A DNA stretch of 64,000 bases from the NCBI GenBank assembly GCA_026025075.1, contig JAPEUI010000003.1, positions 186,001 through 250,000 on the forward strand. The letters are read 5' to 3'. Below the pieces are notes generated by a model. It was not told where the DNA came from, ran no database searches, and saw only the letters and a list, made by a program, of their open reading frames with translations. Shown here piece by piece: positions 724 through 52,557 of this stretch (positions are counted from its first letter, which is position 1; the number at the start of each line of letters is the position of its first letter). The DNA is from Vezdaea acicularis (Eukaryota). Both the position numbers and the translations under genes were made by a program.

Positions 724-2954
724 CTAATAGCTCCCTATAACAGGATCAGTATCTTGAATTTTAGCTTTTGGAGAGACGGGTTGCACACTTCCAAAGAGAC
801 ACCAGCTCTCGGCTCCCTTCTGACAACCGGGTACCATGCATTTCTTGCCTTCCGCGATTTTGGCTGGCTGCTCAAAAGGAATGCACAGACTTTTGGCACC
901 CATACTCGGGGCTCTCTCATCCTGTGGATTGTCATCTTCGCCTTCTTGCCTTCTCGCGCTAAGCTCTTTCACCTTGTCTTCGCAGTCTTCCGTCAGACAA
1001 TGCTCTATCAGACAGACATTCTTAGCGTTCAGTGCTGGCACAAAGTCCTTCCAGTTAGTGATTTGGATAACGTGGGATTTGAATACGTTGTCTGCTTTCG
1101 TATACATGTCCTTCTGAATAGTTTCAAGAAGTTTCGGAACGTCTTCCTCAAGATCTACGATCTGTATCTTGGTCTTTTCGCCTGTATCACGACGTGCTGT
1201 TGTGACAAAACCACCTTTGGCTTCACCTGGACCAAATTCAAGACGAAGGGGTACCCCTTTAAGCTCCCAGTTGTTAAATTTCCATGCGGGAGTATAATTA
1301 TCAGTGAGGTCTATTACAACGCGGACTCCTGCAGAAAGAAGCGTTTGCTCGATCTTGACAATGTGCGCGTAAAGCAGTTCCCGATCTGTATCTGCGGTCT
1401 TAGCATTGATGCCGACGGGGATGACAACAACCTGGTACTCTGCAACACGTGGAGGGTGCACGAGGCCTTGTTTATCGCCATGAATCATGATCATCACTCC
1501 AATAACGCGCGTGCTGAGACCCCAAGAGTTTTGCCAGACATTGATCGGGGGCTTCTTCACCTCTCCAGATTTTGTCGAGGGATCTTCAACCTTAATGTCG
1601 AACATCTTGCTGAAATGTTGGCCAAGGCAATGGCTTGTAGCTCCTTGGATGCCTCGACCTGTATGAGGGATATAACCTTCAACTGTAGTGGTGTAGAGTC
1701 CGCCAGGGAACTTCTCTTTCTCCGTTTTGCGACCACGGATGACGGGAACTGCTAAGAGTTGTTCATATACGCCTGCGTAGTATTCGAGGACTTGCAAGAC
1801 CTCTTTGTCTGTTTCAGCTTTGGTCAAGAATGCCGTATGACCTTCCTGCCACAAAAACTCCCGAGTTCGAAGGAAGGGCATAGGGTGTTTGAACTCCCAT
1901 CTAACTACGCTGCACCATTGGTTAAGTCGATAAGGAAGGTCCCTGTGAGAACGAATCTTCTTGGAAAAGTGCGGATATATAATTGTTTCCGAGGTTGGTC
2001 TGATGGCTATTGGTTCGTCGAGATCAGTATTGCCAGCCTTTGTAACCCAAGCAACCTCAGGGGCAAACCCTTCGATATGATCTTTCTCTAGCTGAAGAGC
2101 TTTGTTTGATACAAACATTGGAAAATAACAGTTCTTCACACCTATCATTTTAATGTTGCTATTCAAATAGTCTTGGATCTTTTCCCAGATGCTATAAGAT
2201 GCGGGGAGATAGACGTAACATCCACTAACGTCGTAATAATCGATCATCTCGCCCTTGGTTAGGACTTGTTGATACCACCCCGGGAAATCGATGTCTTTGT
2301 CAACGTCTATCCCTATCAGGGCTGCTCCTTCTATTTTTGCGTCCTTTTTGGGGCCTTTGATGGCTGTTTTGGTGGCCTGCGGTGCCGTAACAGGAGCAGC
2401 AGCTGCGTCGACCTTAAAATCATGTTGAACAACTTTCACCCCTGTTTTCTCTAGATGGCTTTCTATATCTGCTGCCGTCATGAAGATAGTCTTAGCCGAG
2501 TCCGAGGGGTGAATTGCTATTGGGTTCTTCTCGTTTATAAGGTTCTGGTCTAAGACTACCTGGATATTCGAGGCATTGACACTGGTAATTGAGAGAGGAG
2601 ATACATCTTGTGGTTTGACACCGAGCGCAGTCTCAATTGCATCTGCGGCAGCTGCTCGGGCCTCCTTAGCTCCAATGGCTTTTGCGCATAAATTTGCTGG
2701 TGTTTGTGTAGATTCAAGGGCCACTACAACTATCAGGATTGCAGTTTGTGATTTTGGGGTTTCTAAAAGATTAATTCGTATCAGCGGTGCGGGGTAGACA
2801 ATTGGTGGGGTATGAACTGACTTGGTTTTAGAACCAACGTTTTTGATAGTACACTTGAAGTAGGAACTTCTTTTGGCATCTCTGCCAGTACCTTGGACCA
2901 TTCCTTGTTATCTGCGACGGCAGCGTGGGCAATAGCCCCGTTGCCAGCGGACAT
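724..2954 (-). CDS. Cytoplasmic prolyl-tRNA synthetase with an N-terminal YbaK-like (editing-type) domain
   Basis: Class IIa ProRS motifs (IAIRPTSET, RWEFKHPMPFLRTREFLWQEGHT, QGATSHCLGQHFS, WQNSWGLSTR) and C-terminus ...CLFG|RSY*. ATG at 2954, intron 2821-2763 (GTCAGT...TTTAG) and a short last intron before the final codons. Confidence 0.95.
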
Positions 2955-7066: not shown

Positions 7067-8261
7067 CTATGCAGCATGTCTGACAACCACTTCACCGCTC
7101 TCCATCCCAAAATATGCCGCAACAGGCTTCTGCCCACCGCCCTCGTCACCCGCCGCAGCGACCTCTTCCCCATTCTGTCCCCAGAATAGACCTATCTCTA
7201 CCACACCCACCATGCTCTTCAGCTTTTGCGCCAGCGCACCAACTTCCCACTTGCCATCACTACCATTTCCCTTCTCTTTACCTGCCTCCAAATCGGAAGC
7301 TATCAGCAAGGCCGGGAAAGGAGCGTCAACGATGAAGTTCCCATTATCCGTGACGATGGGCCCTGCTTTCGCGCTGCCCCCTAACCGTAGGAACGGCATT
7401 GATGACCCCAATGTTCGTAAGTTACGCAATACAGTTGGGGCACTTGGGGGGACTATCTCGATAGGAATCGTCGGCCACTTTGTAAGTAGCCGGGGTTGAT
7501 ATTTCCTGAAATCTGCGCACCGTCCACACATCAACATCACTTCTGCTACCACCATAGATCCCATGATTCGAGTAGGGCAACGTACCAGCAACGCACACAA
7601 ACTTCCTCGCGCTCGTCGCAACCAGCTTCTCCTGGAAGAGACACGCCCCACCCCCCTTAATACAGTTTAGATCCTCATCCACTTCATCCGCCCCATCAAA
7701 CGCCACATCCAGCATGACCCTCTCCCCTTTAAGTCCCAATCCCTGCTTCCCCGTCGCCACCTCCAAATGATCTTCACCCTCTTTCCTGCCCAGCTCGCCA
7801 TGCGGGACCAGACTATCGATCGCGCCAAGCGGCAGCCCCGCCTCGACGATCAGCTCGCGCGACTGGAACCCTGTGGGCACGAAGACGATCTTAGAGGTCA
7901 CGGCGGGCCCGAAGGCAGCGATTGCCTGCACGACATAGACCACGGTACTGCCGGACCCGATGCCGACATAGGTGTAGTGTGGGGAGAAGTGGTCGGCGAC
8001 GGCCCGCTGGGCGGCGAGCTGCTTGGCGGCTTCAATGGGGGAGAGCTTTTTGGAGGGGAGCGGGATTTGGGGGTGGACTGTTGTGGTCATCGTGCGCGCT
8101 TCTGAGGCATATGAAGATCGCGGTAAGACGCTATATGTGTTTTGAAGTGGTAGAAGTGAAGTTCTGTATGAAGGACTGGCTGGGGTGGCGCGACTGAGGC
8201 TATTGTAGTGTCGTAAGTGGTGTGCAGCACGGACGAGACGGGCACGTGGAAAAGAGCGCAT
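7067..8261 (-). CDS. RKI1: Ribose-5-phosphate isomerase A
   Basis: Motifs [25 protein letters not shown] and [10 protein letters not shown]. Intron 7585-7513 joins CVA|DFRK. Alternative start ATG at 8090. Confidence 0.95.
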
Positions 8262-8588
8262 ACAAAGCCAGGTTCGCTGCGAAACTAGTCGATTGAAGAC
8301 GAGGGATGCTTGATCAAGTAAATATAGGCGTTCGGGCGGCGGATATGTTCGGAGGCATCCTCCCGGCGGTAGGGGACGGATCTCGTTGAGGGTCTGGCGG
8401 GTGATGACGGGGGTGGTGGGGCGCTGGGATGACGGAGGAGCGCAGAAATCTTATCTGATCTGATCTCGGTTCCTGGCAGGTTCATCCTTGCCATGCACAA
8501 CACCTCTCCAAGCTTCATCAGACGTTTGAAAGCTGCATAAGATCTCATTCAAAATCGACTTATAGCTCCGGAGATTATTCCTTCAGCC

Positions 8589-9331
8589 ATGGCAGAAGAT
8601 GAAGGTCTCGATGCCCTCGAGGCTCTCGAATCCGAAGCCAAAGAGTTTGACAAAGTACATTCCTCTCGCCCCTCTACTGTAGAGAAAGATACTAAAAGCT
8701 GTGGCAGGACGCAGAAATCGATCGCATCCTCAAAGCCTTCCGCCTAGACGCCTACGCCGTCCTCGATCTCCAACCCGGCGTGCCCCCCTCCGACATCAAA
8801 AACACCTATCGACGCAAATCGCTGCTAATCCATCCGGACAAGACGAGAAACCCCAGCGCGCCGGACGCCTTCGACCGCCTCAAGAAAGCCGTAACGGAGC
8901 TGCAGGACGAAGCGATGCGCGCACGTCTCGACGAATCGATTGCTGATGCGCGCATGCTGCTGATGCGGGAGCGGAAGCTGACGGTCGATAGCGAGGAGGT
9001 GAAGAGCGACGAGTTCCGGCGCGCGTGGCGGGAGAAGACGAAGGTCGTGCTGGTCGACAACGAGGCCAGGCGGCGCAGGCAGGTGAAGGCGCAGATGCAG
9101 GAGGAGGGAAGGGAAAAGCGGAAGGAGGAGGAAGAGCTGGATACGCGGAAGCGGAAACGGGAGCAGGAGCAGAGGTGGGAGGAGAGCAGAGAAGAGCGCA
9201 TCAGCAGCTGGAGGGACTTTGCGGGGAAGGCGAAGGTGAAGGAGGCGCCGACAAATGGGGAAGCAGTGGGGAAGCTGGCTGGGGCGGGAGAGAAGAAAAA
9301 GAAGAAGAAGAAGCTGAAGGTTTTGGGATGA
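8589..9331 (+). CDS. J-domain protein, DNAJC8/Spf31-like
   Basis: MAEDEGLDALEALESEAKEFDK|DAEIDRILKAFRLDAYAVLDL...YRRKSLLIHPDK, plus WEESREERISSWRDF and a KKKKLKVLG end. One intron at about 8655-8707. Confidence 0.9.
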
Positions 9332-9737
9332 GAGTCTCGCATTGATGGAGCTTCTGAGGATTTACGGTATGGGCATTGGGCCTCAACAGCGTCAATTTGG
9401 ACGGCGTTTTTTAGAGCTTTCCAAGGTAGAAACTTCCTTATTCCCCGGAGTCATCCAAGCTCGAGCATGGAACTGGAAGAACGTGCATCAGTACCTTCAA
9501 CGCAGTAAGTCACCGCGACGTGCGTCGCACTCGTTTCTCTTCATCTTCTATGTGCGCGAAACAGGATTTCCAAGCATGAGAAATCCCATCTGTTATCTAT
9601 CTGCGCTGTCTGCATCCTCAAAGATGCAGACAGTTCGACATGCTTTGCATGTCAGACGTCAAAAAATCCACCGAAGAGGGCGAAGAGAGGGGGGCGTCGT
9701 TGCGGTCTATATAATTTTGTCTAGACCGACACCTTTC

Positions 9738-9984
9738 AGTTTTCAGGCACCGTGGTCCTAGTGGGTAAGGGGGACAGCAGACTGGGATCACAGTGTAGCT
9801 ACCGTGACTGGGTAGGGTCGAGGATACGTGTGGGCACAGCGTGGTGCGTTAGCACAATGTTCAAGACAGCTCAAGTCACGGTACGTCACTGCGGCTTTCG
9901 AGCTTAGGTGAACTGCAGCCCACTACGGGGCTGTGAGTAACCTTGATTTCCTAGCTGGCCAACCTGAAAGCTACTTTCTTTTTT
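9738..9984 (+). ncRNA. Putative RNA polymerase III-transcribed structured ncRNA of unknown family (~235 nt)
   Basis: TATATAA at 9708-9714 (-30), A-box-like TGGTCCTAGTGG at 9753, B-box-like GTTCAAGAC at 9859 and GGTTCGAGTC at 10145. A 10-bp terminal helix 9738-9747/9963-9972 is followed immediately by TTTCTTTTTT. Several nested helices and a UUCG hairpin are present. Confidence 0.6.
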
Positions 9985-10350
9985 GGGTGTTAGCTGGTTG
10001 GGTCGATCTATCGCTGTCTTTTTGTTGCTGTCGAGACCGAAGAGGTACCTGCTGGGTGCACACAGGTACATGGGCAGAATGTGTTCAACCTATCGTGAGG
10101 ACGAAGCTCAATGCGGAAATTCATGGGCTCGGCACAGAGGTCGAGGTTCGAGTCGTGTTCCGGGCCATATTTAACTTGAGCGAACTTCTTGCACTGACAA
10201 ATCCAAGCTATCATAATTATTTGCTAGTACGGCTCTGACACAAGGAGACCTTTTCTGAGAACTCGCTCGCAGGGCTAAGACTCCTCAAGCTCCATTCGAC
10301 CCACCCGTTATACGCTCGCTCATGGCCAAACGCTCTAAAATCACCAGCCA

Positions 10351-10737
10351 TTATTTACTATAGCTCTTCCCGTTCGGCGCCGTATAGGTGCTTGAGCCTT
10401 TCCCACTGTTGGAGTAGGTGCTCCCATCGGAGTTTGAATAGTAGTAGGAGCCATTACTTAACAGTCACTCGTGGTCAGTTTAGATGTTTTTTTAGGGGTT
10501 CTAGTTCGCTATATGAACGGAATGGCGTACCTGTTGGAATAGTGGTAAGCCGGCTGCCCCGAGCCATAGTCGCGGCTGCAATAGTGGTTGCCCTGTTGCT
10601 CTTATTAGTTCTACTGTAGTTAAAATGGTACGCTAAGAGCGCACCTGTGAGTTTGTGCCTGAGCCTGTCACAGTATAGGAGGAGCCATTGCCGGAGCTCT
10701 TGGAGCCCGAGTTAGAGCTGGAATTGTTGGAGCTCAT
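10351..10737 (-). CDS. Small (86 aa) Ser/Gly/Asn/Tyr-rich conserved fungal protein of unknown function
   Basis: Exons 10737-10645, 10592-10531 and 10456-10351 splice in frame through GT..AG introns, giving MSSNNSSSNSG...YTVTGSGTNSQ|GNHYCSRDYGSGQPAYHYSNS|NGSYYYSNSDGSTYSNSGKGSSTYTAPNGKSYSK*. Confidence 0.85.
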
Positions 10738-11874
10738 GCTTGGGTTTGAGAATTGGTCTTTGAAAGGTTTGAGAAGCTTGAATGGCTTGTGCGTATACTC
10801 AATGATCTTAAATTTAAGAGAAAGCAACACGATTGAAGCAGAGGAGGTTCTCCGATACTCGCGTACAAGTAGAAGCTATCCCCCAATCCAACTTAACACC
10901 TGCCAATCCCCGGCAAGAACCCCCCAATGAAACTCCCCGCCTCGTGAACCACCAAAGCAAGCTCATTATCTCCACCCCACCCCTCAGCGCAGCTCCTCCA
11001 TCCCCAAGCATCGCGCCAGCTTCTAGACCCCCTGCACGATGATCTGTCATCCACGAGGCCTTGGCAGCGCGCTTGTGCCATACACCCCACCCGCGCTTGA
11101 GCCAATCGAGGTCCCTGCGGCGCACGCGAGGAACCCGCAGCCGCGCCAAGTTAATTCCCCGATAACACGGGAGAGCCGGGGGTGCGGTTGTTGATAGGGT
11201 GTTGATGGTGCCAGCGGATGAACCGGCGAGGAGGGGGAGGAAAGTGGAGGTCTAGGCGCGCGGTCGGGAGGGAGGAGGAGGAGAGGCGCTTCCGCGGAGA
11301 GGGACGAGTTCATGTCTGGCGATTTCAGAAAACGCGCGGTTTCTACATATTCGATTCCACTTGTCGTGGTAACTGTTTTTTTCTACCTCGTGGGTTAGAA
11401 GCTGAAGATTTACAATGTCCACCTCCATATTCCCCCACCCCGACCCTCCTAATCCGTTATTATCCCCCCCAGTAATGTTAACCATCCGTCCAGCCATATA
11501 CGCTATGCCACGAAAAAACCACACAGAAAGCCGCCCACAGTAGGAAACTGGGGATATCAAGAAAGGCGCACACGAATACAGAAGCCAGCCAGTGCATCGC
11601 AAAGCTTGTAAAAAGCGCGCGGCATATGTATGAGAAGCCGCCCCAAATGAAAACTCCCGTTTTTTTCCGACGATCCATCCTTTGTTACTTACCCGTCTTC
11701 GTATTTCCTATCCGTCTTTAATATGTATAGACTTAGGCATTTGCTTTGCGGCTAAGTCCCTCTTGTTCGTTTCCTTTCCCTCTGAACGCCATAATGTCCG
11801 AGAAATCTGCCACTTATGGTATGCGCGTATTATCCGGCGCGCATTTCCTTCTCGCCAGTCTACGTTCTCTGACT

Positions 11875-44699: not shown

Positions 44700-47298
44700 A
44701 TGCCTGCTACAACCAGTAAGCCAGCCGCCCCTCTCCCGTCGCTTTGCCCTTTCACCTTACTGACACCTTGCAGTTCCCTCAACAATCCGCATTCTCATAG
44801 CAACAGACAGTCATGTCGGCTTCTGCGAACTCGATCCAATTCGCGGTTCTGACTCTGAAGTATCATTCGATGAAGTCATGCAGCTAGCCAAAAAGGAAGA
44901 TGTCGATATGGTTCTGCTGGCTGGAGACCTATTCCATGACAACAAGCCGAGTAGAAAGGCAATGAATGCTGTTATGCGGAGCCTGAGGAGGAATTGTCTT
45001 GGAGAGAAACCTGTCGAATTGGAGATGTTGGGAGACGCGACGGATGTGTTTAGTGGGTATGTATTCGTATATGTATGAAAGGGATGGCGGAATCCTAGCA
45101 AGGGCTCGAGCGTAAGACAGAGCTAACAATGTATATGCTCAGGGCGTTCAACCACGTGAATTATGAAGATCCTGATATCAACGTGGCAATTCCGGTTTTT
45201 TCTATACATGGAAATCATGATGATCCATCAGGGGTACGCCAAGCTACCATGACTAACTAATGATAGATTTAGTTAGGCTAAAATGCTTCAGGAAGGCCAC
45301 CTCTGTGCTCTTGACATCCTACAGACTTCTGGACTGATCAATTACTACGGAAGAACCCCTGAATCAGATAACATTGCAATCAAACCTGTGCTGTTACAGA
45401 AGGGGCACACGAAGCTAGCGCTCTATGGTATGAGCAATGTCAGGGATGAGCGACTCTTCCGGACATTTAGAGATGGCAAGGTTAAGTTCTTCAGGCCGAG
45501 TACACAACAGAAGGATTGGTTCAATCTTATGTCCGTGCATCAGAACCAGTAAGTCACTCTTGAATTGAGACAAGAATCTTTGTAACTAAGGGGTTGGAGT
45601 CATGCATATACAGAGACAGGTTACCTACCAGAGAATTTTCTCCCAGAATTCATGGATCTTGTAGTCTGGGGACACGAACATGAGTGCTTGATTGATCCAA
45701 AACTGAACCCAGAAATGGGCTTTTACGTTATGCAGCCAGGATCATCTGTAGCGACCTCTTTGTGCCCTGGCGAAGCTGTCCCAAAGCACGTTGCGATCCT
45801 ATCTGTGACTGGAAAAGAGTTCAAGATTGACACACGACGTCTGAAGACTGTTAGGCCGTTTGTCATGAAGGAGATCATTTTGAATGACATACCTAAAATG
45901 AAGGCTTTGTCCAAAAAGCACGATAATCGTAGTCAAGTCACGCAATACCTCACGGACATAGTCAACGATTTAATAAAGGAAGCTACTGAGGAATGGAAGG
46001 AGGTCCAAGGCCCCTCTGGAGAGGATGAAGAGAGAGAGGTGCCACTTCCCTTAGTCAGGTTACGAGTAGAGTATTCTGCTCCTGATGGGGGTAGGTATGA
46101 CTGTGAGAACCCTCAAAGGTTTTCGAACCGATTCGTAGGGAAGGTAGCGAATGTAAACGATGTCGTCCAGTTTTATCGGAAAAAAGCTACTGCCACTCGT
46201 AAGAACTACTCAACCCTATCTATAGGAGCAAGGCTGATCTTCCAAAGGTCGGACCAAAGACGGCGGCGAGATGCCTGCAGAAGGAGCCCTTGCCCAGGTG
46301 ACTCTTGACAACGTGAGAGTGGAGAGGCTCGTACGAGAATTTCTCATGGCACAATCACTCACTATCTTGCCTCAGAACTCATTTGGCGACGCTGTAAGCC
46401 AGTTCGTAGACAAGGATGATAAGCACGCCATGGAGCAATTCGTAAATGAAAGCCTTAAGAATCAGATGGAGAACCTCATGAACATAGACCATTCTAACGA
46501 AGAAAAGCTGGCCGAGGCAATGGACAGTTATCGGTCGAAACTGGAGGAGCTCTTTGCGGCAGGGCATCTGAAGTTGAATGTAATGCCAATCTAATACTTA
46601 GATTATGTCTGAAGAACGCTAATTAGAAGCAGAAGAAGCGAAAGCTGAAGCCAAAGCCAGATAACTGGGACACGGACCTGGACGGGGAGTGGGGCGATGA
46701 GCCGGGCGCCCTCTTCCTCCCTGACGAAGATGAGGGCATCTCCGGTGGAGAAGAGGAAAATACCTCCCTACCTTCTACCACGCCGGCTCCACCCGCCCCA
46801 CGTGGCCGAGGTTCTGCCAACACAACCGTCAAAAAGAAAGCTCCTGCGAAGAAAGCCGCTCCAATCAAAACCAGCCGAGTCAAAAAGACTACAGCCCCCC
46901 CACCAGAAGACAACGACGACAATAATCACGATGTGATCATGTTGGACGATGAGGAAGAAGAAGAGGTCTCACCGATCAAGCCAGCTCAAGGGGGCAAAAA
47001 AGCACACCCTCCTCGAGCAGCTCCTAACAAGCGAGCACCCCCGCGCGCAGCAGCCGCAGTAGGGGCAGGTCATTCTAAGCTTAATCTCTCACAGCCCGCT
47101 ACCTCACAAACGAACGGCACAGCTAAAAACGCACTCGAGCTAGTAAGTCTTTGTCCTAAGCCCATCCTAAACCTCTTTCATTTTATTCTCGCTTACGGCG
47201 CATGTACCTTTTTTTAGAGCGAAGACGAGATCTCAGATGATGACGATGCGTTTGAACCTGCTCCCATACTGTCCACACGGGCTAGCAGAAGGCGATGA
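44700..47298 (+). CDS. MRE11: Double-strand break repair nuclease Mre11
   Basis: [43 protein letters not shown] and [16 protein letters not shown]. Multiple introns. Ends ...STRASRRR*. Confidence 0.96.
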
Positions 47299-47333
47299 TC
47301 GTGGTGGAGAGGGTATTTGTGTACTATAGAGCC

Positions 47334-47580
47334 GTTCGTGTAATATAGCGGCGTTCATACAATGTAGCGACGTTCGTATAATATAGCGGCGTTCATGTAA
47401 TGAAGCGATGTTCGTATAATGTAGCGACGTTCATATAATGTAGCGACGTTCGTATAATATAGCGGCGTTCATGTAATGAAGCGATGTTCGTATAACATAG
47501 CGGTGTTCATATAATGTAGCGACGTTCGTATAATATAGCGGCGTTCATATAATGTAGCAGCGTTCGTATACCGTAGCGTT
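47334..47580 (+). repeat. Minisatellite: 13 tandem copies of a 19-bp unit (GTTCRTATAATRTAGCGRC)
   Basis: Units start every 19 bp from 47334 to 47562. The last copy is degenerate. Confidence 0.95.
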
Positions 47581-48390
47581 AGCAAAAACCTGGCAGGGGC
47601 GGCTAGCACAAAGAGGAATGATACAAAGAACAATCCCCATGAGAATTGTGACCCGACTTTCCCTCAAGTCAATTCCTCGGCTCTTTCAGGTACCTTGATG
47701 GATTTCCCTTACTTTCCGCAAGCTTCCATATAGTTTTCAAACAGCCCACCTTGTCTACCCATCCGCACAGCCCCACATGCATCTCCATTTGGTATAGCTC
47801 AAAGCAAAATTTTCTCGTCATCCCCCTCTTTGCTGCTATTTCAGCGCTAAGCCTCCCTGTCAGACAGCCTTTTTTAATTTCCCGCGCGGATAGGCGGTTC
47901 GCGCGTGCCAATAAGAAGTTGCAAACGCCTTTCCCGCGCTAAACGCCGAGGTATTTTTGACCAGGGTATGTTTCAAATACTGCGGAGATAGCAAACAAAG
48001 TTGGGGCTCGGCGGGAGAGATTGCATCGAGCTATTCCTAATCGGGACATGTCATAGGCGCCGTAGCCAAAGAGGTGTATACAAGCCGTCCCGAAGCTAAA
48101 GAGATAGGTACCTGAGGAAGTACCGACGAGGATGGTAGACATGGAGAGAGCTACAGGCAAGTTGATTATATGGGATTCGCCCGCGTTAATGAGAGAAAGA
48201 ATCTAGGAGGAAGTATGTTTAATGGGCAGGAGTTGACATAGCCATTTGGAAGTGATGAGAAATATAATCGGCGGTCGCCGGTGATAATGTGGCTGCTGAA
48301 ATGAGAGAGAAACCGTCTTTTGAGGGTGGTACCCGCCTCTCGCCCAATCCGGGCGACAGGGGGGGTGGGGGCCAGCCGCTCCTCCCGTAG

Positions 48391-48813: not shown

Positions 48814-51800
48814 ATGGCCACTCTCTCCACTGCTCTCACTAGTCCGCATAATACTTATTCAATTACTGACCTTCTAGATATAGGCTCCTCGCTCCTAATT
48901 CAATCTTCAACAACCAATAACGCTCGTATCCGTGCCATCGACCAACTTAAAGGCAAGTCTCGTCGTTTGAGCTTCTTCCTGGGAAAGCTTAAATACGTAC
49001 AGAGAGCTTCATCTCTCAAAGCAAGAGCTTTTCGTCTTGCTCTCAAGAGTGAGCATCTTTATTCGTGTATTATTGTTGTCCTAGACCATTGTTTTGCTGC
49101 TCCGTCCTGTCTACACTCTTGTTGCTCACCGCTGTCTTTCTATCCCCTTACGCCCTTTGCATTCTATTTTCACAAGTCTCTAGTCGGTTCTTAATTCCGT
49201 CCACTTTGTGGATATACTTGCTGATAAGGCGTTGTTCCCTAGACTTGCCGGTACATCTAGCCAAGTCCAGGCATGGTGACCTTGTCGAGACTTCCACCTC
49301 TTCATCAACTATTTGTCATACTTCCTCCTCAGTCGTTCCGTTTGTTCCGTGTCCAAGTTTAGCTCATTCAGAGCGTAAAGTAAGTTCAACCCCTGCTCTT
49401 GTATCCTATGGCAAGTGTTAACCTGACCAAGGTCTTGTCCGATCGCAACAATAACTCCAGTCCACTTCCTATTGTATGCTTAGAGCCAATAGGAGCAGGG
49501 GTCAAAGACCATAGAGTGAGTAGACGCATCTGCGTATCCTGCCGCAAACTCTAACCCTAGTCAGGACTTGTTAGAGCGTAGCAGCAAGACCGTTTCCTTT
49601 TGCCTTGATACGTCAAGCATAAGTCCTGTTGACTTAGTTCATAACGTAAGTAAACAAGCATCCACGAAGCACATCAAAAAACTAACCAGAACCAGAATTT
49701 GTCAGATACCGCTCTCCGTACACTCTCCAACCAGCTTGTTAATAACGCCACATCAAGTATCTCAAAATTCTCATCAATCATTAGAGCCGACGAGAAGTTT
49801 AAGAAGTTTCTCGACGATCACCGTTCTCCACCAAACAAGCGTGTTACTGCAGGCGGTAAAATAATAGACGATCCGCAACCTCGAAGCTTTACGAAGCTAT
49901 ATAAAACAGTTGCGAGGAATACTTTCATGATGTCGGGGCCTCCAAATTTCCTTCCTGGTGGACAGCCAACTAAGTGGATGACTCCGTTCGGCACCCAACA
50001 ACAGCCAATAGACCTTGATGGCGATCTTGGTCCCATTTTGCCACTGATGGATAATCGTGGCTATACATCTTACACCGGACTAGAGCAAGGTGGAATCATT
50101 GGCTATGGTCAGGCAGCACAGCCAATGTTCCAGACTCCAATGCGACAGGCGGTAACTCTGCGAAAGGACAATGAAATGGATCCCATATATGCTGAAGATC
50201 TTGGTGCTACCAAGCAAGCAACCATGGGGCCCTCCCCAATTAATCCGAATGCCGAGCCGTTTATCCCTAAATCTACTGTTGCGAAAAGGAATTTTGAAGA
50301 TACGGATGATATCATAACGTCATCTTCAAACAAGAGGCTGGTCAGAACTGTTATCAAAACTGAAGCAAAGAAATCGGAGTTCAAAGACTTGCAGCTAGCA
50401 GTGCTAGACGAAAAGATAAACATTGACGGACTCTTGTTCACTCAACTCATCACAGAAGCTCTCAACGAAAACAATAAGGCGCGTGATAGTACGTACCCTC
50501 TCCAGAGCCTTGAAAACCCTGTTACTAATGGATACTTATAGCAGTCAATGGGTCAGTGAGCAGTGAGGAGGATTGCACAGGTCTCCGTAGTCTCTGCCGT
50601 TGCTTTGCTTGGCGTCTGCGTGATCTGGATCGTCAGATGAGTCTATCTCGTAACATCATCGGACGAGATATTAGCAAAGAAGCCATGTACGACGAACAAC
50701 TGGTATTCAACATTCTACAGAAGTTGAAGGAGCCAGCTGCCGAGGGATTTCTTCCGTTCTCCAACGCAACTAATACAAACCTAGATAGCCATGCCGTTGT
50801 CGGTAGGCAGCAGACTAGGGCTGTCGATCATGATGAGAACGCGTTGGTGATAAGTAGTTCTTCGCTTTCACCAGCGGCGTACACTGTACCCAAGTCAGCC
50901 AAAGGAAAAGGCAAAATGAAGGCCAACGATATGTAAGTTGCTTCCTTCTCCCACTCTTTCCATTATATGAGACTGAGCATACTCTTGGAGTTCCAGAGAA
51001 ATGAACAGCAGTAGTGCATTCCCACTCAACGCGGAAAACGCCATATTCTACAACAAATATGGCATGGCAATGAAAGAAATGCTTGTCCTGATGTTCGCTG
51101 ACCACGTAAAAGATATCGCAGAAGTCAATGTTCGTCCATGGGGCAGGTCGGTAGGTGTTATGCCGGGAACAATTCGCGGAGCACATAATCTACTGTAAGT
51201 CCTCTCATCGTGAGCTGTTATCCTCCATGCACTTTAGCTGATACCCTCTAACAGAATGAGCGAATATCCGCTTGAGCTTGATGAGATCGTCACAAGCCTC
51301 GCTAAGTCACCAAAATTCATGGTCAACGCAAAGGCCTGGTACGATAAATACCAAGGGGAAATCGCCGAAAGCTTTGTCAAGCAAATGGGCAAAATCTTAG
51401 CAGTAGAATGGACAAAGATGTCGCTTGCTTTCACAGCAAAAGATGGCATGAGCAACAAGGGCAGCCATTCCAGATCTCTGTCAAAAGAGGCTGTGTACGG
51501 AACAATTGCACCGATGCGCCTGAGCTCACCGGAACCCCGCAACAATCCAGCTCCTTTCAATCTCAGTCAAGTCGCGAGAGCCACAGACCCAGAGCATGAT
51601 ATAATGGCAGCGAATAACCCAGAAAATTATCATGCGGCACTAGGCTTGCCTTACCCAGAAGGTAGAGCCATGGAGCCAGCGCACGATATCATGGCGGCGA
51701 ACAATCCAGAAAACTATCTTGCGGCACTAGGCTTCCATCACCTGAAAGATAGAGCCACGACTCCAGAGTACGATATAATGGCAGCCAATAATCCAGAAAA

Positions 51801-52557
51801 CTATCATGCTGCGCTAGGCTCGCGTAACGCGGGAGATAGAGAAATTTTACCAGTCATGGAGCCGAAGATTCTTTCGCAGCCCTTCCACCAGCAGACGGGA
51901 GCAATGCCGATTCAGGCGCGGCAACCAACTGTCCAGGTTGCTCCTATGGGGCAAATGGAATACGGACATCAAAAAGATGCTGTTGGGCGAGCAGGATCCC
52001 ATCGCCGTACCGTTTTGCAGCCAATGAGCAATCGAAAGACGCGTGACAATCAAGGATGGTCAGAAAACTACCCAGTCCCACAATATAATCGCAGATTGTC
52101 CGGTCGTAAAGTGGATTTGCCCGGCTTTCCTGTTGGGCAGGATTATCTCGCACCAGCTCCTCGGAACTATGGTGAAGTGCCAGTCTTCCGTACCTATATG
52201 GAGCGAGATGAAATGCTGCCTCCCAGCAGTATACAAGTTAGCGGACGCGTTTATCCGCCAACTCCGCAGTGGGCTCCTGCAACTCGCCCTACGAATCCCC
52301 GAGCTGTTTCTCCTCTTCCGTCTGGCTTGAATTCTGTCTTTGCTGCGCCAGCACAGTCTCGGCCTTCTCGAAGAGGTTTATATCCACCTGGAGTCATACC
52401 GGATTCGCATCTCCCTGTCAATAGTCTTCTCCCAGCTATGGCACAATCGGCTCCGTCCTCCTACCCAGCCTATCAGCCCGACCCAACACATCGAGTTGCG
52501 TTTCCCTATGCAAACTCGACAGAGCAGTTCACTGACCAATACTACATCCCACATTGA
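48814..52557 (+). CDS. 8-exon ~1040-aa largely disordered protein with YXXXXLL, RVTAGG and PAM2-like motifs
   Basis: Exons 48814-48952, 49243-49379, 49432-49515, 49565-49645, 49696-50488, 50542-50932, 50997-51194 and 51255-52557 join with consistent phase (3126 nt). The first intron needs a GC donor. Confidence 0.7.
51577..51837 (+). repeat. Coding tandem repeat, 3 x 87 bp (29 aa)
   Basis: RATDPEHDIMAANNPENYHAALGLPYPEG / RAMEPAHDIMAANNPENYLAALGFHHLKD / RATTPEYDIMAANNPENYHAALGSRNAGD. Confidence 0.95.

Follow-up and report, generated by a model that had tools for sequence, protein, structure and literature searches.

We describe a short intergenic element in a 64-kb window of ascomycete DNA (the window being the whole stretch analysed; positions count from its first letter) that is probably a real, lineage-restricted orphan RNA gene. 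The explanation we prefer, with about even confidence, is an autonomous small-RNA gene, likely transcribed by RNA polymerase III (Pol III), whose product would be a scaffold RNA of about 240 nt. The observations behind it are a folding signal on one strand, the placement of a TATA box and a T-run around the element, the lack of an Rfam match, and a relative that carries compensatory changes. An earlier note on this DNA had proposed a stand-alone RNA gene outside the standard families. That proposal is borne out by the bracketing signals, by the empty Rfam and tRNA searches, and by a conserved 5' part with compensation elsewhere in the element, whereas the detailed junction drawn in the same note is not. 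The whole window was scanned for signals and Rfam families, and the coordinates of the features are collected in Table 1.

Table 1. Features of the candidate RNA gene and neighbouring open reading frames (ORFs) in the 64-kb window
Feature	Positions	Strand	Basis or remark
Prolyl-tRNA synthetase ORF	724-2907	-	Pfam domains
Ribose-5-phosphate isomerase fragment	7422-8450	-	neighbouring ORF
DnaJ-domain ORF	8696-9331	+	neighbouring ORF
TATATAA box	9708-9714	+	first base 30 nt upstream of first paired base 9738
Proposed transcribed region, about 240 nt	9738-9984	+	predicted start from TATA distance, end inside T-run
Terminal helix, 5' strand	9738-9747	+	pairs with 9963-9972
Conserved 5' segment	9741-9798	+	in relative, a single substitution, at 9758, and loss of one base at 9754
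Long hairpin	9791-9891	+	fold; basal part 9791-9809/9874-9891, distal part 9799-9871
UUCG-capped mini-hairpin	9893-9904	+	covariation in relative
Third hairpin	9906-9943	+	basal stem 9906-9909/9940-9943, apical stem 9915-9921/9928-9934
Terminal helix, 3' strand	9963-9972	+	minimum free energy (MFE) fold and pair probabilities
Oligo-T terminator candidate TTTCTTTTTT (T3CT6)	9975-9984	+	starts 3 nt past terminal helix

The element lies about 400 nt downstream of the stop codon of the DnaJ ORF, in an intergenic stretch that no long ORF crosses. The prolyl-tRNA synthetase (ProRS) encoded in the same window is 100% identical to a protein that NCBI assigns to a metagenome-assembled genome of Vezdaea acicularis, which points to a Vezdaea-type ascomycete. 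The matches that follow, in Geoglossum umbratile and Vezdaea aestivalis, are 69% identical and mark the host lineage as isolated. This isolation accounts for the outcome of a metagenome scan with a 19-letter pattern taken from the conserved 5' segment, in which all four loci recovered were chance matches, alike in the pattern alone. DNA of the window recurs in moss and soil metagenome runs, consistent with a moss-dwelling fungus. Among the 120 listed ProRS relatives, 19, mostly from lichen-fungus genomes, carry the source name 'ribose-phosphate pyrophosphokinase 1', which looks like a propagated annotation error. Elsewhere in the window, about 12 overlapping copies of a 19-nt period form a tandem array at 47284-47606, and three tandem 87-nt repeats (80% identical, their length a multiple of three) occupy 51577-51841 inside the long ORF 51238-52557, where they probably encode a repeated 29-residue protein segment.

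The folding signal of the element is real, strand-specific and moderate. On the + strand, positions 9738-9984 fold at -97.6 kcal/mol (z = -3.21), a stability reached by one of 200 dinucleotide shuffles; on the - strand z is -1.06, and 21 of 200 shuffles fold equally well. The stretch thus falls below its shuffles on the + strand only, in agreement with the strand chosen in the earlier note. A sliding scan of 235-nt segments taken every 100 nt across 9038-10772 (32 segment-strand tests) placed the lowest energy at 9738-9972 (-96.9 kcal/mol; z -3.2 on the + strand and -1.4 on the - strand). Two segments upstream reached z of about -3.4, driven by an unrelated 11-bp palindrome at 9606-9633.

All sequence strings quoted in the earlier note were found where it had placed them, and its outer architecture largely agrees with the computed fold. 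The terminal helix, ten base pairs with one G-U, is part of the MFE fold with pair probabilities of 0.72-1.0. The hairpin of about 100 nt also holds, with its CAGTG/CACTG pairing, the perfect 10-bp helix 9800-9809/9874-9883 (probability 0.95-0.98 for nine pairs and 0.5 for the tenth) and the GCAC/GTGC cap. In the third hairpin, which had been drawn as a side hairpin, the apical stem reaches probabilities of 0.94-1.0 and the basal stem 0.67-0.87. The UUCG hairpin (9894-9896/9901-9903) is disfavoured in this sequence taken alone (probability 0.04) and gains its support from the comparison with a relative described below.

The four inner helices proposed between these parts (9753-9761/9951-9961, 9766-9770/9941-9945, 9777-9780/9913-9916 and a CTGG/TTAG pairing) fared differently. 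The best fold that keeps them has -79.7 kcal/mol, against -96.9 kcal/mol for the MFE fold, and the pairs of the helix 9753-9761/9951-9961 have probabilities of at most 0.01 and two uncompensated changes in the relative. In the folding model these helices are possible pairings that are not favoured, and the multi-helix junction built from them finds no support. The MFE fold of the window's own sequence instead turns the 5' segment into a local hairpin, 9752-9762/9781-9791, with probabilities of 0.84-0.99. In the relative, a G deleted at 9754 and a C>G change at 9758, which also disrupt the helix 9753-9761/9951-9961, weaken this hairpin without compensation. RNAalifold, given both sequences, replaced it by a long-range helix, 9772-9790/9944-9960, that would close a four-way junction with the long, UUCG and third hairpins, joined by linkers of 0-1 nt. 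Imposed on the window's sequence, the RNAalifold model has -90.9 kcal/mol and is therefore 6 kcal/mol dearer than the MFE fold, and the relative carries no changes in the long-range helix that could test its pairing. On the two sequences compared, both pairings of the 5' segment are candidates.

The signals that flank the element were evaluated against their frequency in the window. TATATAA occurs at eight sites on the two strands together; the looser TATAWAW has 16 sites on the + strand, among which the box listed in Table 1 stands alone in the interval 9000-11000. It stands at the distance of about 25-30 nt before the start that is found in Pol III genes with an upstream TATA box. On the other side, TTTCTTTTTT has this single match in the whole window (0.22 expected by chance), while runs of at least six T number 13 on the + strand. 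The T-run that the earlier note saw after the 3' helix is present, just past the terminal helix as an oligo-T terminator would be, though not directly adjacent as had been stated, since AC intervenes. For each of the two signals, the chance of landing in its own slot of 11 to 15 nt is about 0.003. Their placement around the terminal helix, together with the size of the unit, leads us to read the element as a Pol III gene with an upstream TATA box, a layout shared by fungal 5S, U6 and 7SL genes. From the TATA distance, transcription would start at A9738 or G9739.

Internal promoter elements were considered and rejected. An A box at 9754-9764 (TRGYNNAGTGG) would need two mismatches or a one-base insertion; at up to one mismatch the window has 39 A-box matches (38.7 expected from shuffles), none of them at that place. 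A B box at 9815-9825 would need three mismatches to GGTTCGANNCC; at up to two mismatches there are 165 matches in the window (169.7 expected), again none at that place. The putative B-box stretch falls within 9815-9829, the longest change-free run of the hypervariable part in the relative. Yeast U6 has a downstream B box, and a one-mismatch B-box match, GGTTCGAGTCG, lies at 10145-10155, some 160 nt past the terminator, but matches of this kind are no more frequent in the window than chance predicts. The GG-T-GGGTCGA string of the long hairpin recurs at 9996-10006, just downstream of the T-run.

For comparison we used a single close relative, 'organism B' of run X9, which is about 90% identical in the flank and is known from short contigs, four of them on this region at a likeness of at least 80%, and one of these may be a paralogue. 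Runs X5, X6 and X7 were left out, as their short contigs are 97-99% alike and probably come from the same species. A 7.4-kb contig of the relative aligns to the flank 9500-9643 with 14 differences in 144 nt, carries 81 unalignable letters in place of the 83 nt at 9644-9726, and resumes at 9727-9754, which places the element at the same locus in the relative. The listed differences in 9500-9643 have no three-base periodicity, and a coding reading of this flank was rejected. The palindrome mentioned above is a perfect inverted repeat about 100 nt upstream of the RNA (arms 9606-9616 and 9623-9633, 6-nt loop; z about -3.4 on both strands). Among the 11 listed of the 14 flank differences, three (9606, 9607 and 9609) fall in one of its arms and none in the other, and the repeat looks not conserved.

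Two short contigs of the relative cover the body of the element to 9963, one (record 7) with 23 differences and six gaps and the other (record 9) with 31 differences and four gaps. Regional counts were taken from record 9 alone, with 29 of its 31 differences listed. Among these, one lies in the 44 nt at 9755-9798, 21 substitutions and four indels lie in the 73 nt at 9799-9871, and seven lie in the 92 nt at 9872-9963. At the level of this sequence comparison, the 5' segment and the 3' domain are kept better than the non-coding flank 9500-9643. The contrast runs through the long hairpin itself, with a conserved basal part, a hypervariable distal part, and the change-free island 9815-9829 within the latter. 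A 31-mer over 9741-9772 stands as a separate contig in the relative with a depth of 30.5, about 2.5 times that of the single-copy flank (12), while the two body contigs have depths of 8.2 and 3.3. The extra depth suggests further copies that would share just the 5' head.

Covariation is concentrated in the UUCG mini-hairpin, the one part of the element that it supports. Position 9894 changes together with 9903 (G-C to A-U) and 9896 together with 9901 (U-A to C-G), both compensatory. Of the seven changes that the relative has in its 3' part, these two pairs account for four, and they fall in a stem that the earlier note had predicted beforehand; all nine pairs of the 3' part that were set a priori remain standard pairs. 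When seven substitutions were placed randomly in 9872-9963, 16 of 200,000 trials produced at least two double changes of the compensatory kind. In the third hairpin, a C>T change at 9931 turns G-C into G-U, and one at 9913 likewise leaves a G-U pair.

Compensation in the long hairpin was considered as well and was not upheld. The hairpin has nearly the same energy in both organisms (-41.6 kcal/mol in the relative and -43.1 kcal/mol in the window). With the same mutational load at random places, 11 of 1000 variants were as stable as the relative (three of 500 in a separate run with 22 substitutions); when random letters were put at the observed places, 149 of 1000 were, which is not significant. 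The stability in the relative thus comes mostly from where the changes fall: they avoid the strong basal helices, and specific compensation is not demonstrated. One pair, 9813/9869, switches from U-G to G-U, and several others break.

The third hairpin holds a further recognizable feature. Its internal loop sets GAA (9910-9912) opposite AGTA (9936-9939), with U9909-A9940 and C9913-G9935 as the closing pairs. PMC1865062 gives AGUA/GAA as the classical sequence of the sarcin-ricin (loop E) module, and in the element the two strands are flanked by Watson-Crick pairs on both sides. All seven loop letters are unchanged in the relative, where the change of the closing C9913 to U keeps a wobble pair. 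We therefore regard the loop as a candidate sarcin-ricin/loop E module, a fit at the level of its letters that was found post hoc. The AGUA strand is the 3' strand here, whereas the arm of eukaryotic 5S rRNA has it on the 5' side, and the Rfam 5S model has no match in the element.

Several observations bear on an unlikely alternative, in which the element is a short non-autonomous mobile element (a MITE-like foldback, or a SINE whose head resembles a small RNA) or has been domesticated from one. SINEs combine a head from a small-RNA gene with a tail from a LINE, as described in PMC7245038. The element shares with them its shortness, a possibly tRNA-like 5' head (its 5' part can be read by eye as loosely like the acceptor and D-arm half of a tRNA) and, from the 31-mer depth, hints that the relative has further copies. 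Unlike a SINE, it has no LINE-derived, A-rich or simple-repeat tail, as the terminal helix is followed by the T-run; it has no second copy within the window, and it occupies the same position beside the same flank in both organisms. Its ends do form a 10-bp inverted repeat, but as DNA this repeat has a mismatch where the RNA pairs G with U. The only flanking repeats, neither of them a clear target-site duplication, are CTTTC (9733-9737 and again 9974-9978), a pair shifted by one base, and a 28-nt direct repeat with imperfect copies (9702-9729 and 10013-10040, 71% identical) of a kind that often arises by chance; together they may be chance or a trace of insertion or duplication. The upstream copy of the 28-nt repeat contains the TATA box. 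Finally, the compensatory changes and the folding on one strand point to selection on an RNA.

That the element has no function, its good folding being a chance property of an intergenic stretch beside a fortuitous TATA box and T-run, we consider quite unlikely. The folding z-score is indeed not extreme among the 32 tests of the scan, where other segments go lower; the comparison rests on one relative, and the place-preserving control for the long hairpin was not significant. Chance would nevertheless have to produce two signals that jointly bracket the terminal helix, the two compensatory double changes, and a 5' segment whose conservation far exceeds that of the neighbouring 83 nt, which cannot be aligned in the relative.

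Known RNA families were searched at several thresholds. Rfam 15 gave no match at the gathering score in the whole 64 kb and none, not even a weak or partial one, in 9730-9990 at E<=10 with the laxest filters. In 9600-10100 at E<=10 there was nothing in the RNA part and a single match, at chance level, at 9613-9642 (Zeta-pan, E 2.6), over the upstream palindrome. These searches included the models for tRNA, 5S rRNA, spliceosomal snRNAs, U3, C/D and H/ACA RNAs, SRP, RNase P/MRP, Y and vault RNAs and the Afu_ families, none of which matched at either threshold. ARAGORN found no tRNA genes in the window, and the statement of the earlier note that the element matches no standard fungal ncRNA is upheld by both programs. 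Inspection by eye for consensus features of known RNAs revealed no Sm site, C/D or H/ACA boxes or telomerase template in the element, no P4-type CR-I/CR-V strands of RNase P/MRP and no helix-8 GNAR/AGCA motif of SRP; the single AGCA (9851-9854) is changed at three of four places in the relative, and the apical loop is changed too. A BLAST search against plasmid sequences, a collection of little relevance to fungi, gave no match, and a 12-letter string of the RNA searched in the literature gave a single unrelated one.

It is accordingly very doubtful that the element is a divergent known RNA (an SRP, RNase P or MRP RNA that escapes the Rfam models in a long-branch lineage) or a published motif outside Rfam. 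The isolation of the lineage speaks for a missed homologue; against it stand the empty searches at lax thresholds, the missing diagnostic strands, and an order of helices that presumably does not fit the layouts of SRP, P or MRP RNA. Among published motifs, none of the 15 motif headings of the fungal screen of Li and Breaker 2017 (PMC5640933) names a stand-alone Pol III-type RNA. A table in Gao, Jones and Rivas 2021 lists, without a description in the text, an 'intergenic structure 2' that is found only in Pezizomycotina, mostly single-copy, with 144 nt and 24 covarying pairs (PMC8216456). Compared by description alone, it and our element are both stand-alone, intergenic and structured, but 'intergenic structure 2', which was outside Rfam when published, is listed at 144 nt and the element has about 240 nt.

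A last alternative is a Pol III-made precursor of microRNA-like RNAs, with the hairpin of about 100 nt cut by Dicer. The main milRNAs of Neurospora require Pol III, and pri-milR-1 is intergenic and about 170 nt long; milR-1 depends on a TATA-like element and has no A and B boxes, and a T stretch lies downstream of all four of the loci milR-1 to milR-4, according to PMC3547838. Compared by description, the element shares with these Neurospora crassa loci (Yang et al. 2013, PMC3547838) the intergenic position, a length below 250 nt, an upstream TATA-like sequence, a T stretch and a long hairpin. Although milR-1-like signals thus flank a hairpin whose basal 20 bp or so are conserved in the relative, this origin is very unlikely, since the terminal helix that joins the ends and the two further conserved hairpins, which the Neurospora loci do not have, are needless for a Dicer substrate and the covariation with the best support is found elsewhere than in the long hairpin.

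We therefore return to the small-RNA gene as the preferred explanation. In this model, the TATA box at -30 would set the start and the T-run would end the transcript, giving a product whose two ends pair in the 10-bp helix and leave a short oligo-U tail. The RNA would serve as a stable protein-binding (RNP) scaffold, with the near-invariant 5' segment and the 3' domain, that is, the UUCG mini-hairpin and the hairpin with the sarcin-ricin-type loop, as recognition surfaces and the long hairpin as a variable arm. Transcription, the polymerase, the tail, protein binding and a cellular role are what we infer from the observations above. Y RNAs, vault RNAs and 7SL are small RNAs with paired ends that act as protein scaffolds. 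The element resembles them in its size class, in paired ends followed by a (predicted) oligo-U tail, and in conserved ends around a variable middle, but it has no Rfam match to any of them. Ascomycetes are not known to have vault or Ro proteins. A possible Y-RNA relationship through the string UGGUCC, which recalls the Ro-binding stem, was rejected, as the string is lost in the relative through the 9754 deletion and the 9758 substitution. Y RNAs, vault RNAs and 7SL are listed among Pol III products in PMC12193147.

A broader reading is that the element belongs to an undescribed family of structured Pol III RNAs in lichen-related ascomycetes (Vezdaea and allies). Its members, encoded by a small set of genes, would share an invariant 5' head, a junction of four helices, the UUCG mini-hairpin and a sarcin-ricin-type protein-binding loop, and would serve as a fungal counterpart of Y, vault or 7SL-type scaffolds. 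We put this forward tentatively, as a possibility somewhat short of probable. A class common to Pezizomycotina, as suggested in the earlier note, is unproven, the element being seen in one close relative. If real, the RNA would form an orphan family, as nothing catalogued matches it; small structured Pol III RNAs as a kind are already known.

The finding would be an ordinary one if the element turned out to be mobile or to be processed into milRNAs. The host lineage is poorly studied, with few genomes and no laboratory culture, and the practical impact would therefore stay modest as long as no tractable relative is known to have the RNA. To our knowledge, few Pol III products are known in filamentous fungi beyond tRNA, 5S, U6, 7SL, RNase P RNA and the Neurospora milRNA precursors. 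If our reading is true, a further conserved, structured Pol III RNA would extend this short list and would imply a new RNA-protein complex.
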